Positions 19,504 through 63,816 of a stretch of DNA of 64,000 nt are shown one piece after another. The stretch spans positions 5,830,564 to 5,894,563 of the forward strand of contig CAVNZM010000004.1 in NCBI GenBank assembly GCA_963693365.1, written 5' to 3'. Below the pieces are notes generated by a model. The model saw only the letters and a list, made by a program, of their open reading frames with translations, did no database searches and was not told the DNA's origin. The stretch's first letter is position 1; the number at the start of each line of letters is the position of its first letter. The stretch comes from Amoebidium appalachense. Its lineage: Eukaryota; Protista; Ichthyosporea. The translations under genes and the position numbers were made by a program.

Positions 19504-22500
19504 CTCGTGTGTGGGGGGTTTGGGTGTCTGTGTGAGAGTGAGTGCATGTATGTTTGTGTGTGTGTGAGTGTGTGGGAGTGCCTGCATCAACGTTCTTGCT
19601 ATGCGTATGAGCGTGTAGTTGGCGGTCTCCTGTGTGTGTATGTGCTTCCTTTGATCACCTTGTGTGGGGCTGTGGGTGTCTGCACTGTGTTGCTCCTGCA
19701 CCAATATAAGCCTTTGATTATGGTCTGCTAGTGTGTGGCCTTGGGTGGTGGTGCTGGTCTGGTTGAGGGTGGCCAGCGGGGGGGTTGTTTAGGGAAGAGG
19801 AGGTAGGGTGGGCGGGGGGGGGAGGGGGGGGGGGGGGGGGGTGATAAGGTAGGGGGAGGGGGCTGGGGGGAGGGGGGGGGGGGGGGGTGATAAGGTAGGG
19901 GGAGGGGGCTGGGGGGAGGGGGGGGGGGGGGGGGCTTTGTGAAAGGTGGACACCGACAGCTGTGGGGGGGCGCAGAGCAAGGAGGCCAGCGAGGCACGGC
20001 TGCACTATCTGGCTGTGAGGGGCCACCTGCTGGCCCGCAGATACGGCCCCCCTGGGCCCAGGTGCTTGCACACGGGGGGAGGAGGGGGGAGGGGGGGGCT
20101 TGCCACCAGGGCTGACCGAAATTGGTGGATTGGGGTTGCAGGAAGGTCGACAGTGTGCGGCAGGTAGGCGGCAAGAGACCTGCTCTGGAGTTAGAGGGGG
20201 AAGGGGGGGGGGGGGGGGGGGGGGGCAAATTTGGCCTGCCAAAAAGGGGAAGGGGGGGAGGGGGGGGGGAGGGCAGGCACAGTCCGTCGTAGGGGAGAAG
20301 GAGGGGGAAGGGGGAGATGGAGGGGAGGGATGGACACTCAGACACTAAGCAGCCATGTGTTGGACTGTTGCCTGCTGGGGCCTGTGGGTGGCAGCAATGA
20401 TCATATTTTAACGGGTCTGTGGCCCCCTAGAGTCTGGAGATTGGCCGGCCCAGCATGGATGACCCGGCCAGTGGTGAGCCCCGCATGCATGCACGGCACA
20501 CGTGGGGGGGTGTGACATTGCACACACGGTGCTGTGTCTGCACATATGCAGATCAGACAGACACGGTGCTGACTGAAGTGCCCCCATGCACATGCAGCCA
20601 CTGACAGGGGGTACAGGTGGCAGCCACCAGCGACGCCCAGTGGCAGGGCAAAAGGGGGCAGTGAAGACGCAGCCGGCACAGGCAGGTGCGCAGCACGAAG
20701 GGTGGCGGGGGGGGGGGGGGGGGGACCAGGCGGATGCTGAATGGCAGGGCCACAGGGGGCAATGTGCAGTCACTGGCCGACCACTACTCGTTCTCGGGCA
20801 TGCACTGCCTGTTCGACCACCACAAGGCCCCAGGTACGTGCCTGCTGCCCAACCATACCCACCCCAGCTGACCATGCGGCCGCAGTGACCGATGTGAGGT
20901 TTGCCCCCAGTGACCCAGACCTGCTGGCATTTGGCTCCCTGGACGGCACCATTGTGAGTGCCATGCATGGCATGTATGGTGTGATGGGTGGCATGCATGG
21001 CATGTATGGTGTGATGGGTGGCATGCATGGCATGTATGGTGTGATGTGTTGCATGCATGGCATGTATGGTGTGATGTGTTGCATGCATGGCATGTATGGT
21101 GTGATGGGTGCTGGGCTATGCACTAACAGGGCTATCAGACCATTGCCCGGGTAGGAGCACGGCCGACTGTGCTACACATCCTGGAGGGTCACAAGGCCGG
21201 CATCACAGGTGTGCATGCTGGCCTAGGGGCTGGAGGGGACGGGCACGGGGGCTGATGGCAGGATGGTGCAGGGCTGGCGTGGGCCATCACCAACAGCATG
21301 CTGGTGTCTGTGTCTCTGGACCGCACCTTGCGTCTGTGGGACGTGCTGGGGGGCAACAGCATGAAGGCCGTGGACACAGCCATGGACCTGCTGGCCTGCG
21401 CCCTGTGCCCCACAAACAACAACATGCTGCTGGTATTATTGCATGCCCTGTGCCCCACAAACAACAACATGCTGCTGGTATTATTGCATGCCCTGTGCCC
21501 CACAAACAACAACATGCTGCTGGTATTATTGCATGCCCTGTGCCCCACAAACAACAACATGCTGCTGGTCCTGTGCCCCACAAACAACAACATGCTGCTG
21601 GTAGCTAATCCATGCTGCATGGCCATGCAGACACAATAGCATGTAGCTTGCTGCGTGCGGGCATGCAGCTTTAGAATGTAAACTCTTGTATGTGCAAGCA
21701 CATTGGCCACATTTACTCTGCACTGCACACACACATAGTGTGAATACATGTACTTTGCACTGCCTAAAGATGTTATTGTGGCGGGGACCACACGCCCCCA
21801 CACGCCACATGAGCACTGCTAGCAGCCTACAGTGCGCTTGCTGTGCAGCTCACATTTGGGCTGCAGGTAGGGACGGGCCAGGGCCAGCTGCACGTGTACA
21901 ACATCTCAGTGGGCAAGCAGGTGCCCGGCAACAGGGTTGCTGCTGCTGCCCCCATCAAGGCCCTGGTCTTTGACGACCCAGGCACTATGGTCTGGGCCGG
22001 CGATGCAAAGGTGTGTCCTCTCTCCTCCCCCCCCCCCAAGTGAAACAGTATCTGAGTTGGGTTTCGTTAACGAGGGGAATAGGTCGAAACTCGGGTACTG
22101 TGGATGACGTGGGCCCCCCCTGAGGATGGGCTCTGCTTATTATGCATACTCTTTATGTATGGCTTGCATTCTGCATCGTGTTATCCGTTTGTTCTTGTGT
22201 ACTTCGTACTTTTTGACGCATTCAAAACCCCCCCCGGCTTTCTGCATGGTGCTGACGTCATGGGCCAGGGCACGGTGCACAGCTTCAAATTTGACATGGC
22301 TGCTGGCCGGCTGACAGCGCTTGTGCGTGTGATTGTGGCCGAGGGCCATGCCATCACCTCCCTGGCCTACAGCACGGGCAGCGTGCTGGGCCCCAAGCAG
22401 GCCCCCCTGTTACTCCTCAACTGCAGAAACAACATCCTCTACCTGCTCAGGTGGGCACGCACACACACACACACACACACACCACCTTCTGCCTGCTCAG

Positions 22501-56185: not shown

Positions 56186-56737
56186 AACATACAGAAATGA
56201 GAGGGGGACGGGGGGGCTCCGCGGTACAGAAGAGACACACTTCCGCGAAGGGATTCAATACGGAGGTGGGTGTAGCAGTGCACTTACATTACTCTCGGTT
56301 ATGGTGCACATGTGCCCAGCACACAGCAACTCCTAGAAACTTTTATTCGGGTAGATATGCGTTTTTTTCGGAAAATCGTGTTTTTGATTTAAAAATTCGC
56401 GAATAGACAGCGCCAAATGCAAGCTGCCCTATGGTGATGTGTGCCCCGTATGACTCATTTGGAGGGTTTCTGGTCTACCCTCGACAACTAGACCCATTCC
56501 CAAGGCTGGGCCACAAAAAAGCTTTGTGCTATGCACTGCGGCTCCATCCAGCCCCTTGCCCCTCCCCCCCCCCTGCCCCCCCCCCCCCCCCCCCCCCCCC
56601 CCTCTTGCCGTACGGCCACGAAACCTAGCCACATGCACAGCCGTGCCTTGACTTTATAGCTATTTAAAATCAAATCAAATCGTTTCATACATGAATCATA
56701 CATGCCGCTACAAACTAAGCAACCTGCTGGCCTAGGC

Positions 56738-59494
56738 CTACCAACTGTGGAACACCCCGAAGGTCATATCGCCCACAGCAAACCTTATGTTCTGCCCGTC
56801 CATCCACAGCACGTCACCGTCCTCCCCCACCCTCACAAACTTGTACTCCAGCATGCAATTTGCCGGCAGCTCCACACAGGCCTCGTGCCGTGTGCCCATG
56901 CTATCCATGCTCACACCCAGGCCGGGGTTCCACATGCCCAGCTCAGGCCTGCTGCCCACGACTCTGATCTCATCCCCCGGCCCAGCCATATCACTCTCCA
57001 GCACAAACGTGGCCCAGACCTTAGCTGGGGGCTTGCTGTGTGTGCTTGGTGTGTGTGGTGTGGTGGCGCTGCCGATATTCACCACCGTCTCCTGCTTGAT
57101 GGAGGGCTTGCTCTTTCTTGCTGTGCTTGGGGTGACGTTTGTAGCTGTGACCTGCACACTCAGTGTGCTCTCTGCATCGGTTAATCGGCCCAGTGGGGCC
57201 ATGGTCTTAGTCTGGGTGCGGCTGTGCCGCTGGCTGGACGTGGTGGACCGCCTACGAATGGTCTCGGACATGCGGCGGATCTGATTGGTCACCGCAAGGG
57301 TCATGCGCTCGGCCGCAGCCGGCTGCACTTGCATGCGGCGGAAGGCGTAGGTGGCGGCCACGGCCGGCAGGAAACTGAGCACCAGCAGCATGTAGCCCAC
57401 CCCCACACTGCAGCGCCCCGGCTGGAAGAACCCTGAGCCCGGCCCACACAGGGGGGCCTCGTCAAACAGATACACAGTGTCGCCTGTGCGCTGCATGGAG
57501 GCCGTGCCAAAGCCCAGCGGGAACAGCAGGCTGGACAGGGCCAGGAGCACGGACGTGGTGCCCATGGCCATGACGCTGGCGCTGTCGTTTCTGCTCTTGT
57601 CCTCGGCCATGGTGGCCAGCACCGTGGATGCACAGGCCACCCCCGTGAACATCACACAGATCACAACCATGATCCCAATACCGACCCACAGCTGCCCGGG
57701 CCAGCGCCTGAAGTCCGTGCCGTATGCCGCACACAGGTCTGTGTGGTTGATGCCCCATGTGGGCACGTTGGGCACGCTGTAGCAGTTGCGCACTGCCCCG
57801 TAGGTGATGTCGTAGGTGTCGGTGGTGTTTGGGAACACCCCCTCGATGCTCAGCCAGTCGGCAGACAGCACGGCCGGGACCAGCAGGGCCAGGGTCAGCA
57901 GGGACAGGGCCACCCCAAAGGCCCGGGGCACACTGCGGCCCAGGAAGCGCCACAGGATGGCCAGGCTGTAGTGGGGCGTGTAGATGACGTAGAACACAAA
58001 GCTCAGCCCCATCTGGATGATGGCCGGCACGGCCAGGATCACGCTGACAATCAGCAGCTCCCTGAAGCTGGGCAGGTAGGTGAGGATGTAGCCGGCCGCC
58101 ACATTCAGCACCATGAGCACACCGCACAGCAGGAACCCGGCCCGCTTGAGCCGGCGCTGTGTTTTCTCCTTGTTCTCCTTGCTGACGCTGTCCATGTGAT
58201 CCGACGGCCGGTTGCCCCAGGTCAGGTCCCAGGTGCGGGCAAAGGAGTAGGCCGGGAACCAGGCCACAAAGGTCGGGGAGAAGAAGATGTAGGGGAAGAA
58301 GTTTGTCAGCATCATGACAAAGCACTCGAGGGAGTGCATGAAGGACAGCAGGAAGGGCACGCCCATGACCAGGGACGTGATGATCAGCACGTTGCCGCTG
58401 CCCTCCACTAGGGACACGGCCAGGGCCGTCAGCACCCCTACGGTGGAGATGGCGTTGAGCAGGCAGGCGGCGTAGAACAGGAACGGCACCCACTTTGTGA
58501 GCATGTGTGCCACGCAGTAGCTGACGTACAGCACCACGTACAGGGCCTGCACGGCGCTGGGGAACCAGCCGGGGAACACGCTGAGGGCAGTGATGGAGTA
58601 GTATGCCAGGGAGATGAAGATGGCCGGGGACACAGACACCAGCAGGAACATCAGGAACTGCAGCAGCAGCAGCACAAAGCTGACCAGCTTGAAGTGCCAC
58701 GCATGGGGGGACCGGAACAGGATGCCGGGGCACCAGAACAGCAGGAACACATAGCCGGCAAACGACCCGTTGGTCCAGCGCCGCCGCTGGGCAATGAACC
58801 TCTCAGCGTCTGTCTCTGCCTCGAAGTAGAAGATGGCATGGGGCACCCACGACGTGTACTTGCCCGTCAGCAGGGAGGCGGCATACGACAGCACACGGTC
58901 CTCGGCAAGCAGAAGGTTGCCTGCAGCAAAGGTGGGTGTGTTAGATGGATACTGCATGCACATGGCAGGTAGAGCCACAAGGGAATACCGTTTTGCCATT
59001 GAAACGAATGCTTGGCCATACTGGGTCTGGGACATATGCACTGCCTATCAAAACTCGTGCATAAAGCTGTTTTGTTGGGCTGACACCCATCTTAACGTGG
59101 TGGAGGCATGATCACATGATTCGAAAACACGGGCAAAAAGAAAAAGGGAAAGATGCACGTAAACATCAGATATTGGACAGTATATATGGCTCTTTTTATG
59201 TCGCTGTGTGCACCCGTCTAGAAGTTAGGGTTCAAATCCGTAAAGAAAAACTTTCATCGCATCAACTCTTTCCACACCACAAAAGCTCAGGCTCTGTTCG
59301 TGTGGAGGGGTGCCTACCTGTGACCATGTCTGTCTGGTCTGGGCCTATGTTGACGGTCTCGAAGTAGTAGTCCAGACACTTGCCCCGTATGTCCCCCATG
59401 CGGTACATGCCGCACGGCCCAGGCAGCACAGGCAGCATGCCCACCAACGCAAAGGCGCCCTGGAAACTACTGATAGACGCCTCATAGTCGAAGG

Positions 59495-59547
<53 letters not shown>

Positions 59548-59722: not shown

Positions 59723-60431
59723 GGGCAGTGTCTGTGCAGGGAGAGGGCAGGGGGAAGAGAGAGGCGGGGAGGGAGGGGGGAGGAGCGTTTAGAACGGCAT
59801 GACTCACGCGGCCCGCATGGTTGGGGGGTTGTCGTAGGCACATCATCATCCCCCCTCCCCCCCCTCCCCCCCTCCCCCCTCCTCCCCTTCCTGGATGTCA
59901 GAGAGAAGTGCAAGTCCAGGGTGAAAGAATATGACGGGCGTGTATGTGCAAGATGCACAAGCATGGGCACGTGTTCTTGTGTGTATAAGGTATGTGATGG
60001 GCACGTGTGTGCATGTGTGAAGAATATACAACAGAACATTTAGTGTGTCTGTATGTGCATGCATGTGTCTGCAAGCGCTAGACGGATGGCCAGCCAGCCT
60101 GCACGTACTGTTTGCATCAGGTTGCCCCCACCCATGGGACATGCATATGTAAACAAACGCGTGCAAGGGGGCTATGCGTGAGCGGGGAGAGAGCACACAC
60201 TAACAGTCTATCTCCTCACTAGCACAAACATATAAAGACATATCGGAGCATAGACAACCTCAAAAATCTGCAAGCATATGGTGTGCAGACATCAACATGC
60301 ACTCACACACTACTTTCGCCCCCACGCACACACACGCGCAAACAAACCCACACTGAGTGCTCTCACACACATGAACACACACATACACAGGCACATACAC
60401 CTGCCTGTGCCTGATATGTGTGCACACAAAT

Positions 60432-60505
<74 letters not shown>

Positions 60506-60924
60506 GTGCCGCACGGAACCACATCTCCAGAAACCCCTCGTCTTCAGCCCTCTGCATAGCCGAGCTCATAACCCTCTGCCTGCCCGTGCACCCGGCACAG
60601 TCTGGGTTCTTGTCCATGTACTTGATCAGGTGGTACATGCACTTGGGCGCATACAGGGTGCCGCAGTCTGTGGCAAAAGCAAACTCGGCGTGCACAGCAG
60701 GTGCATATGCCTGTGGGTGGAAATAGTGGTGAGTGGTGTGTGTGTGTGTCTGGAGGAATCGTTGGGTATGCAGCCTTGATGGGGCTGCCATGCATGCATG
60801 TCACGTTGGTTTGTAGTACTTTGTGCCAAGGTTTTTTAAGCGCATATTGCTTGCAGAGTTATCGTTGCAACTGTTTAGGGGTGCAGGGGGTGCAGGCAGA
60901 TGGGTAATGTTGTTGTTGTTGTTG

Positions 60925-60959
<35 letters not shown>

Positions 60960-62061
60960 ACAGTGTGTGTATGTGTGTGTCTGTGTGCGCTCATGCATGT
61001 TGTGTGTGTGTGTGAGCATGTGCTCGGCCCAATATTGGGAAGTGGGGAGTATTTGTGTGTGCATATGCGTGTGTGTGTTCCTGTGTGTTCGTATGTCAGT
61101 ATGAGCGTATGCTCGCTGCGTGTGTTTTTTTTTTTGTGTCTGTGTGTGTGCCCGTGTGCGTGTGTTTGTATGTATGTGTGCGTTTGTATGTATGTGTGTA
61201 TTTGTGTGTTTGTGTGTGTGTGTGTCTGTTTCTGTGCCAGTTTACTTTGTCTCTGCGCGCACGCATTTCGCACTCGTACACGATCCATTTCTACTTTATG
61301 TGTGGAGATAAATGGACGGAAAGGTGACATCGAGCCTTGAACGTGTGTCTTGAAATGCATATTTGTGCTCTATGCGCACATATGCCGGATAGACTTATAT
61401 CCCCCCCCCCCCCCCCCCCCGGCCCCCTCTCCCCCCCCCCCCCTTCTTTCTCCCCCCCCTCCCCCCCCCCCCCCCTTCGCCGCTCCCCCCTCTTTTTCTA
61501 TCGTAATTTCGGCACATCCCCTCCAACCCCCCCCCCCCCCCCCTCATACCTGGAAGAACCACTCGTGGCTGTTTAGTTTGCGCCTGTTATCCAGCTTGAT
61601 CAGCATGGTGAGTCTTAGACTGTTGCCCCCCCCCCACGTCCACATCTGCCGTGCACCCGTTCTGGTCCACTGCCTGCAGCACAAACGTGGCCACCCTGCC
61701 CTGGTCACGTGGCATGTCTTCTATGACCTTCCACCACCCCTCATCGCTGCGCATGTCCCCCGGTGGGAACATCTCCTTCACATAGTCCCGCATGCTCTCA
61801 CTGGCCTTGTACCAGCCATCCATCACGGCTATCACGTGGCACTGCACACCAAGGCACTTGAGGTCCTGTGCTTGTCTGCATGTGTGGGTGGAGGTGGTGG
61901 TGGGTCAGTGTGTGTGTGTGTGTGTGTGTACGTGTAGGGAGCAGAAGTGGGGAAGGAACGGAGCACACATTCTGCATTGCTAAATCGCACTATTTAGACC
62001 ACGGTGAACAACACAATCTGATGTTCAGGAGGGGGTTTTTTCTTCTTCTTCTTCTTTTTTT

Positions 62062-62092
<31 letters not shown>

Positions 62093-63816
62093 GGGAGGGG
62101 GGGCACGTGCACCATGGTTGGCGGTTGATTGGGCCACTTCCCCATGGCTGACAAAGACATGTGAATGATCTACCAAAATACACAAAAGGCGATGCATGAT
62201 ATAAAAAGCAGAAATGAAACTCGTGAGTACCAAGGACAAAGATCGAATACGAAAAACACGATGAAATGTGCACAAGAACACCACTGCAGCACACAGACAG
62301 CTCTTATGCACGGCCCTTTCAGTAAAGGGATAGGGGTGGGTGCAGGAGGTTTTGCATGGTGCGTAAGGTACAAGAACTAAAAAGTTCACTCAGCACACAT
62401 AAAGGGAAGGGAAAAAGAGTGATGTGCACTTTTTTGTTATCTAATCTACGCAACAGAACAATTCAGTCTATTTATCTGTCTTAGGTAAGACTCCCCCCCC
62501 CCCCCCCCCCCCCCCCAAGTAAGTACGGGAGACACACGGAGAGATGATAGAAATATGGATGCACACATACATTGAGATCAGGTTGAGAAGAGGCCACGGA
62601 AAAAGTAGAACGGTGCAAGGAGGCATAATAACCGGGGGAGGAGGGTAGATGGGTGGGTGGTTTTGGTGGTGGTGGTGATGGGGGGATACAGGGGTTATCC
62701 TGTAACAAGTGGAAAGACGTGATCTCCCCACGAATGAAGGTCCTACACTGCCCGGGCTTCCCTCATTCACAACGATTGCCCACAATGCGTATTCGGATAC
62801 ACGCCGTCAACAGTTCTTTTATACACCAAATAGCTGCACACTATTTCCATCGTACTCGTTCTCCCAAGCCACCACACCATCACCCCTGCAACAGCCATTT
62901 GCACGTGCCCAACACAAAACGAAAAAGCCGGCAGCAAATCTTTGTACAACGCAAAAGGCGGTGTGTAAAAGTAAGGAAACGTATTGTTGACCCCAACCCC
63001 ATAACACCGCTGAGTTTGCATAGTGGAAATGCCTGTCAATAGGCTTATAAACCCGTTTTTTCACCATGCGTGGGGCTCAACCAAACCTATGAATAATGCC
63101 AAAATACATTCAACGGGTATTTTGGAATGGCAAAAAATGTTTCGTGATATTGAATTTCCTAAATGATGTGGCGGTAACCTGTATGTGCAGCATGTGTTTC
63201 ACAGAGTGGTTTGGTGTGTGATGCGTGCTTTGTGCATGTGCACAAATTGGGTACGAGTGGATGGGTATATCAGTGTCTGTGTGCTGGGGTGCATACGGGA
63301 ATGTGTTTGTGTTTTGTGCAACAAGGGTGGAAAAGTGGGTGTTGCTTTCAGTGCATGTTTATGATGTGTTGCCACCTAGTAGTCTAAATTGGCAAGTGTT
63401 TTCTCTTTGATATGGGGATCTGATAGAAACGTAAGCGCACAAGCGCATAAAAAACACTTGCCCCTCTATTCTTCTACAAACAGCAAGAGATATCGTAACA
63501 CAGCACTCGCAGACCAAGACCAGGAGAGTTACCTGCATACGGCCAGCAAGGACCGTTCCAGCTCGTGTCTGTCCTCATTGAAAAATGGATACACTACCGC
63601 ACATATCCTGTTGTTTTTTTCGTCTGACGGGGTGGGTGCAAAGTACTGTGTGCCCAGCTGTGGGCGTGAATGCTCTGGGCCTTCAAACACCCGAAAGTCT
63701 AGCCTGGTCGGTTCACGCCTTTGCGTTGGCGCAAACGAAACTGCTCTTTTTCGTGGCATCTCCATGTCACTGTATGTAGAAATAAACGAAGGAAAATTCT
63801 GCAATATCCGTTGCAT
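56738..63816 (-). CDS. Chitin synthase (GT2) with C-terminal LHFPL/claudin-like tetraspan domain and CBM20; 5 exons; apparent frameshift in a G10 run of exon 2
   Basis: Exons 63816-63533, 61875-61550, 60710-60504, 59495-59318, 58920-56738. Motifs [64 protein letters not shown]. Start codon uncertain. Confidence 0.9.

Follow-up and report, generated by a model that had tools for sequence, protein, structure and literature searches.

A predicted chitin synthase joined in one reading frame to an LHFPL-family tetraspan domain and a CBM20 module

Introduction

Ichthyosporeans are used as models for the origin of animals. In animals themselves, subunits of the LHFPL/claudin fold tune GABA-A, AMPA and hearing channels. 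LHFPL4 pairs with GABA-A receptors, TARPs and GSG1L pair with AMPA receptors, and DUOXA1 pairs with DUOX1. In Candida, the site of wall growth is controlled by Sur7, which is a claudin-like tetraspan (excerpts of PMC11244165). Accessory domains listed for chitin synthases include the myosin motor, cytochrome b5, DEK, SAM, IQ, MIT and GH16 (excerpts of PMC12653383, PMC13561034 and PMC3942024), and in the solved enzymes motif 9 (SWG/TWG) lies on a cytoplasmic loop before TM5 (excerpts of PMC12653383). Chitin has been reported in ichthyosporean walls (excerpts of PMC6492006), and ichthyosporean and Acanthamoeba sequences were described in one group of PMC5122149 (excerpts). Aphelid chitin synthases are treated in excerpts of PMC6299283, and PMC11286789 mentions chitin synthase once, in a historical context.

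The gene described here lies in a window of 64,000 nucleotides (the whole stretch of DNA that was analysed) and places three parts in one chain, namely a chitin synthase, an LHFPL-like tetraspan and a CBM20 domain. No published fusion of a chitin synthase with an LHFPL or a CBM20 domain was found in the literature covered, which consisted mostly of titles and the beginnings of abstracts, with subscription papers outside it. In 12 of the 20 supplement files of PMC5122149, there was no entry for PF10242, HMGIC, CBM20 or Sphaeroforma.

Gene organization and synthase core

The gene consists of five exons on the minus strand, and every intron is of the GT-AG type (Table 1). The open frame at 56738-58924 (-) comprises 728 codons without a stop and contains all the motifs quoted in the initial annotation. 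That annotation had stated that the frame continues uninterrupted past the synthase, and the last exon, 58920-56738 (-), is indeed stop-free from the EDR/QRRRW/WGNR region through the tetraspan and the Ser/Thr linker to the CBM20 domain; codon bias and spliced X1 contig sequence reaching 56600 agree with this. As to its extent, the gene starts outside the interval proposed, with four more exons up to about 63765. Alternative start methionines of exon 1 lie at 63816 and 63759, and there is an in-frame stop upstream of 63945.

Table 1. Features of the gene, with positions in the window
Feature	Position	Strand	Basis or content
Exon 1, coding part	63533..63765	-	Start Met 63765; motif 1 PFFNE; X2 contig, GT-AG ends
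Exon 2	61550..61875	-	Motifs DGW, RRKLNSH; spliced X1 and X2 contigs, GT-AG ends
10-G run causing the exon 2 frameshift of the window	61626..61635	-	X1 and X2 contigs have one base fewer
Exon 3	60504..60710	-	Motif DCGT; joint 60709/61549, CT..AC ends on the plus strand
Exon 4	59318..59495	-	Motifs QAFDY, VLPGP; joint 58919/59317
Exon 5, chitin synthase part	57983..58920	-	EDR, QRRRW, membrane helices, TWGNR loop, TM5, TM6
LHFPL-like claudin-fold tetraspan	57335..57934	-	PF10242 above cut-off; model pLDDT 88; fold matches
Basic Ser/Thr-rich (30%) linker	57026..57334	-	Predicted cytosolic
CBM20 domain	56741..57025	-	PF00686 above cut-off; alignments to glucoamylase and STBD1 CBM20
Stop codon (56738-56740) and transcribed 3' UTR	56600..56740	-	X1 and X2 contigs

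Long homopolymers abound in this genome, and the extra G of the window in exon 2 is accordingly taken as a likely assembly error. When the G run is given the length seen in the contigs, an uninterrupted frame of 1041 residues results, beginning at Met 63765, and the spliced protein of about 1040 amino acids contains all nine catalytic motifs. Other gene models of the assembly could be disrupted by homopolymer runs of the same kind.

The motifs occur in the order PFFNE, DGW, RRKLNSH, DCGT, QAFDY, VLPG, EDR, QRRRW and TWG (reference motifs from PMC12653383). Motif 5 reads QAFDY instead of QxFEY, D being the commonest residue at that position among the homologs compared. Residues 2-247 of the last exon matched Phytophthora Chs1 (7wjm) in the PDB at E 4.3e-8, and a family profile matched the solved division-1 enzymes at E 2.8e-52. 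Chitin_synth_2 scored 14.4 bits on the last exon (cut-off 27), which is expected since this exon holds only the C-terminal half. PF01644 (Chitin_synth_1) gave no match when the exons were scanned singly, and it scored 43.5 bits (cut-off 25) on the closest homolog, P0002, which is 56% identical. PF08407, the CHS N-terminal domain that defines fungal classes I-III, was reported neither for exon 1 nor for the 60 homologs scanned; hence, the enzyme was filed as division-1-type and not under a fungal class. The best reading of these matches is a division-1-type chitin synthase core that is predicted to be active.

After the TWG loop follow two helices (TM5 and TM6), a basic segment, the four tetraspan helices and a basic tail. 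Given a cytosolic TWG loop followed by TM5 and TM6, the chain enters and leaves the four-helix tetraspan on the cytosolic side. From this predicted topology we infer that the linker and the CBM20 domain are cytosolic, in line with the side assigned to the CBM20 in the initial annotation, and that two Cys-paired, sequon-bearing loops lie outside.

The tetraspan domain and its distribution

The segment after the synthase had been likened to LHFPL/claudin proteins, and this likeness was confirmed by both sequence profiles and fold comparison. L_HMGIC_fpl (PF10242) matched residues 340-524 at 33-38.8 bits and E 9.5e-8 (cut-off 25.2), covering profile positions 8-171 of 181, and a family profile matched LHFPL5 and LHFPL4 chains at E 6e-8. 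The domain has four helices, a first outer loop that forms a beta-sheet and carries a Cys pair and two N-glycosylation sequons, and a second outer loop that contains another Cys pair and the CG...G.C motif. A model built from 18 aligned homologs showed four long helices (pLDDT 88, pTM 0.85); a model from the single sequence was discarded (pLDDT 50). In a Foldseek search, five LHFPL4/GARLH4 chains came at the top (best 9fav_L, E 8.2e-8, TM 0.70). The VIA fold search placed LHFPL4 (9faj_L) first, with Z 17.6 and an rmsd of 2.9 over 180 residues; MP20 and TARPs were within 1 Z unit of it, MP20, TARPs and claudins scored Z 16-17, and unrelated bundles 11.5 or less. ESM Atlas assigned the domain to claudin-clan clusters (0.90).

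Sequence identity to proteins of the LHFPL/claudin superfamily is 13-18%, and a single-sequence PDB search with the tetraspan gave chance matches only. Pfam matches to Atthog/MOSMO were below the cut-off, and there was no Pfam match to Sur7. A word-based protein search with the tetraspan alone was weak: it missed relatives that the full HMMER scan detected, and none of its 7080 candidates among longer proteins reached E 0.01. The LHFPL-type module is fused in frame after TM6 and is not a free-standing small subunit; the segment is a domain of the LHFPL family, not an LHFPL protein.

Homologs were taken from the best 150 of 750 full HMMER matches and from a second search (88 proteins) that included named relatives. 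Among the 207 proteins compared, the synthase core was matched in 205, this protein included, and a local profile of the second half of the tetraspan matched 18 at E < 1e-21, the next best being at E 2.1. The synthase-plus-tetraspan design is thus present in 17 other proteins of this set. Pfam, run on 60 of the proteins, gave six above the PF10242 cut-off and five more below it. Carriers with a species name come from Ichthyophonus hoferi, Sphaeroforma arctica and Pirum gemmata, the others being environmental proteins. Two Sphaeroforma proteins, SARC_00625 and SARC_00623, already carry PF10242 in automatic annotation.

A tree was built from 68 of the 139 core sequences that passed a coverage filter, comprising every carrier, the named homologs and the best 40 of the remainder. 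Under midpoint rooting, the enzymes of Acanthamoeba, Salpingoeca and giant viruses fell on the opposite side of the root. All tetraspan carriers were found in one clade of 24 rows (support 98/95), the named members of which are ichthyosporean, and this protein grouped with two Ichthyophonus proteins (99/88), which makes an ichthyosporean source of the window likely. Within the clade, 18 members have the profile match, P0003, P0019, P0157 and P0160 stop within the first helix or loop, and P0013 and P0168 stop before the tetraspan and look truncated. This distribution fits a single origin of the synthase-tetraspan fusion. Judged from the sequences compared, a synthase with an LHFPL-like tetraspan is the standard design of an ichthyosporean-type clade, which is apparently undescribed in papers, though visible in database records. 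Four close relatives outside the clade (P0011, P0159, P0014 and P0018) end after TM6, so the tetraspan is not a general requirement of this enzyme type.

Several members of the family differ in other ways. P0016, a clade member, has ADN in place of EDR and no WGNR with the tetraspan intact; it is likely an inactive synthase kept as a scaffold. The sister-group synthases P0014 (CFRG0329T1, a Creolimax-coded name) and P0018 carry an N-terminal SH2, a phosphotyrosine-reading module, and B-box, immunoglobulin I-set or PA14 domains occur in the more distant P0026, P0056, P0059 and P0093. P0015 and P0046 have two chitin synthase catalytic regions in tandem. Of the environmental clade members (P0004, P0007, P0008, P0012, P0017, P0152, P0154, P0155 and P0158), some are on 20-28 kb contigs; giant viruses or protists with few introns are candidate sources. 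Scans of viral contigs with P0007, P0152, P0012 and P0155 gave no relative, and the 50 viral and metagenome loci that encode a related synthase showed no match to either the tetraspan or the CBM20.

Two readings of the tetraspan were weighed. As the top fold matches are mostly auxiliary subunits, and as Sur7 governs wall placement, the domain is likely to be a built-in auxiliary subunit. The main rival gives it a role on the outer face, where a variable, glycosylated first loop beside the chitin exit would guide chains, bind the wall or link membrane and wall. Such variability was observed: the loop spans about 50-75 residues in this protein and eight homologs, whereas in 9 of the 17 homologs with a whole loop it reaches 200-243 residues and carries 2-10 sequons (lengths depend on the alignment). 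Only this protein, Ichthyophonus P0002 and three further proteins retain its Cys pair. The model is also matched, at Z 16, by claudins, proteins that work through their outer loops. However, the loop of this protein is short (51 residues) and LHFPL-like, and the conserved part of the module is formed by the membrane helices and the second loop. All 15 homologs that extend through the fourth helix retain the Cys pair of the second loop, and a mostly basic tail follows in each. An outer-face role is therefore considered unlikely, and the auxiliary-subunit reading is preferred. The long first loops (P0153, P0005, P0016, P0155, P0006, P0012, P0007, P0008 and P0017) gave no Pfam match and may represent an undescribed, sequon-rich extracellular domain.

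The CBM20 module

The C-terminal segment had been assigned to CBM20, and CBM_20 (PF00686) matched residues 646-718 at 47.2-52.6 bits and E 2e-12 (cut-off 23.3). The PDB sequence matches of residues 633-717 were CBM20s of glucoamylase and CGTase, and ESM Atlas returned CBM20 clusters (0.97). A word-based protein search with this region was weak and gave 10 candidates, none at E 0.001.

On alignment with glucoamylase (W543, K578 and W590) and STBD1 (W293, K322, W334 and N339; excerpts of PMC11406230), site 1 was found to be complete, with W at 56930-56932, K at 56840-56842, W at 56804-56806 and N at 56789-56791. The glucoamylase-type site 2 (Y527, Y556 and W563) is replaced, and the STBD1-type second site (H271/Y272/R333) is gone, L occupying the position of R333; the same alignments bear out the original observation that site 1 is kept and the site-2 Trp replaced. 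Since site 2 is variable across the family (excerpts of PMC9920598 and PMC11406230) and laforin has site 1 only (excerpts of PMC11406230), its loss does not exclude membership of CBM20. STBD1 requires both of its sites for effective glycogen binding (excerpts of PMC11406230), and with both second sites missing here the affinity for glycogen may be low. The residues kept suggest that the domain is likely a weak one-site glycogen binder. A glycophagy receptor of the STBD1 type, which would have a second site of H271, Y272, R333 and W355 and an LIR motif in the linker, was ruled out by the missing second site and the missing LIR, as no [WFY]xx[LIV] motif occurs in the linker (residues 529-634).

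A local CBM20 profile, made from this domain and five from two amylase-type proteins, matched only this protein and two amylase-type proteins among the 207; the domain was found in none of the 204 other chitin synthases compared, the two closest relatives of this protein being truncated models. Pfam CBM_20 was likewise absent from 58 synthases among the 60 proteins scanned. All 15 clade members that are complete past the fourth helix lack it (their tails are 14-162 residues long), so the synthase works without a CBM20 elsewhere. The architecture had been called unfamiliar; this holds for the CBM20, seen only here among the sequences compared, and not for the synthase-plus-LHFPL part, which is clade-wide and present in automatic annotation. 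Of the two findings, the tetraspan fusion is better established, and the CBM20 is more unusual.

A CBM20 confined to one protein could be a recent passenger with little or no affinity for glycogen, either neutral or serving as a protein-binding or stabilising tail. The loss of both second sites and a codon bias weaker than that of the tetraspan (0.28 vs 0.60) point in this direction. One more domain gain is also less surprising in a family that often gains unrelated domains such as SH2, B-box, Ig and PA14, and the CBM20 of STBD1 additionally mediates stability and protein contacts (excerpts of PMC4076837). Against this reading, all four site-1 residues are kept despite low overall CBM20 identity, a pattern that suggests selection on sugar binding, and laforin manages with site 1 alone (excerpts of PMC11406230). 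We regard the passenger as improbable and retain the weak one-site glycogen binder.

Expression and integrity of the gene

The synthase-tetraspan-CBM20 gene is real and expressed. A single spliced X1 contig of 3062 bases contains exons 2-5 as the pieces 61875-61549, 60709-60513, 59488-59317 and 58919-56612; it skips the introns and shows no substitutions relative to the window, and the 16 letters between two of its pieces are identical to exon ends that were masked as repeat. The contig spans synthase, tetraspan and CBM20 with no end or splice before 57930, which substantiates the single transcript that had been proposed. An X2 contig splices 63533-64000 onto 61875, joining exon 1 to exons 2 and 3. 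X1 and X2 represent one sample, their contigs being short-read unitigs and not full-length reads. None of the runs that contain the stretch is recorded as RNA; X1 and X2 were taken as RNA because the contigs skip GT-AG introns. X2 also covers 56602-57495 in two overlapping contigs. An X3 contig (56912-57731) and an X4 contig (57178-57918) do not differ from the window; both runs also cover intron DNA and may be the source of the window. Contigs of X2, X3 and X4 cross the tetraspan-linker or the linker-CBM20 join.

Codon bias, trained on the synthase part, was positive in the same frame for the tetraspan (0.60 vs -0.29/-0.27), the linker (0.21 vs -0.23/-0.17) and the CBM20 (0.28 vs -0.33/-0.38), and was -0.6 to -0.7 in the 3' UTR and introns. 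The neighbouring genes encode an RRM protein, NDUFB7, a phosducin-like protein, a class I tRNA synthetase, a member of the enoyl-CoA hydratase family, a WD40 protein and Skp1/POZ; seven of the nine neighbour frames scanned gave a match, all of the housekeeping type of eukaryotes, which argues for a chromosomal gene and not a viral insert. No second CBM20, tetraspan or synthase was found within the 64-kb window. That the fusion is an assembly artefact or a chance run-on of adjacent genes is scarcely credible and largely refuted: the assembly made at least one homopolymer error in this gene and the contigs are short-read unitigs of one sample, with X3 and X4 possibly the source of the window, but no stop, intron or gap separates the domains, one X1 contig spans them without a difference, contigs of three other runs cross a join, and the synthase-tetraspan join is common to 17 homologs.

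Some further features were observed. X1 contigs cover parts of introns 1 and 3 (62113-63562 and 59897-60421) at lower depth, which may reflect repeats, carried-over DNA or RNA that had not been spliced. The QRRRW region (58751-58800) is also matched, at 86%, by another X1 contig of 1667 bases, likely the transcript of a paralogous synthase. On the plus strand, at 21256-21636, a WD40 exon is continued by several copies in tandem of a short coding-like unit (CPTNNNMLLV...); this probably reflects tandem duplication at the end of an exon.

Proposed mechanism and implications

The functions that we infer for the three parts combine into a wall synthase with a built-in auxiliary tetraspan and a weak one-site glycogen tether, a reading to which we assign a probability of roughly 0.55. 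The core would polymerise GlcNAc and thread the chitin through its six helices, as in the solved relatives. By analogy with LHFPL4, LHFPL5, TARPs and DUOXA next to their membrane partners, the tetraspan would pack at the edge of the synthase and govern how it folds, reaches the plasma membrane or clusters there. With a tether of 100 residues and helped by the avidity that dimerisation of the synthase would give, the CBM20 may hold glycogen particles near sites of wall building; alternatively, it may render the enzyme responsive to the state of the glycogen stores. The enzyme does not use glycogen as a substrate, and as several enzymes stand between glycogen and UDP-GlcNAc, co-location or sensing would be expected and not channelling. 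A broader account, in which a clade of unicellular relatives of animals captured a subunit of the LHFPL/claudin fold and the CBM20 turned the enzyme into a glycogen-sensing wall builder, is tentative and well short of even odds.

The clade-wide LHFPL-like fusion names a candidate regulator of the placement or control of chitin synthase in ichthyosporeans and offers a single-chain target for the structure of a processive synthase with an auxiliary subunit. It also raises the possibility that chitin synthases elsewhere are partnered by free claudin-fold proteins, and the CBM20 provides a cheap way into a possible link between wall synthesis and glycogen stores. If the broader account is true, the claudin fold would have had a pre-animal job as the partner of a wall-building enzyme, and stored carbon would be linked directly to the wall, for which there is no described precedent among chitin synthases. 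If the CBM20 is inert, the fusion would be an unreported but ordinary domain gain in a family prone to such gains.

Comparison with known systems

The division-1 synthases of P. sojae (Chs1, 7wjm), Candida (Chs2, 7stl) and yeast (Chs1, 7xs6) share with this protein the GT2 core and the nine motifs, as well as a six-helix membrane region with a cytosolic SWG/TWG loop before TM5. Unlike them, it has four more helices and a CBM20 after TM6, and D for E in motif 5. The ichthyosporean synthases SARC_00625 and SARC_00623 (UniRef A0A0L0GDY3) and the Pirum gemmata and Ichthyophonus hoferi models belong to the same clade and have the synthase-plus-tetraspan design; Ichthyophonus P0002 is 56% identical to this protein over 579 core columns. 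None of these relatives has a CBM20, two Ichthyophonus models stop inside the tetraspan, and the first outer loop of the Sphaeroforma proteins is much longer than that seen here.

The fold of the tetraspan is that of LHFPL4/GARLH4, LHFPL5/TMHS, TARPs, GSG1L, MP20 and DUOXA, and with the LHFPL family it also shares a Pfam match above the cut-off and the CG...G.C motif of the second loop. Whereas these relatives are free subunits of ion channels or oxidases, the domain described here is attached covalently to a polysaccharide synthase.

STBD1 (genethonin-1) and laforin have an intracellular CBM20 with the W-K-W-N site 1, as does this protein, whose CBM20 is predicted on the cytosolic side. STBD1 further resembles it in being membrane-anchored and in carrying its CBM20 at the C-terminus, after a long linker, with an H-x-W ending, but the second site and the LIR motif of STBD1 are missing here, and in site make-up the domain resembles the one-site CBM20 of laforin. 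The fungal Sur7 family likewise comprises claudin-like tetraspans with a part in positioning wall and chitin synthesis; Sur7 is a separate protein that acts through PI4,5P2 (excerpts of PMC11244165), and the likeness is one of analogy only.
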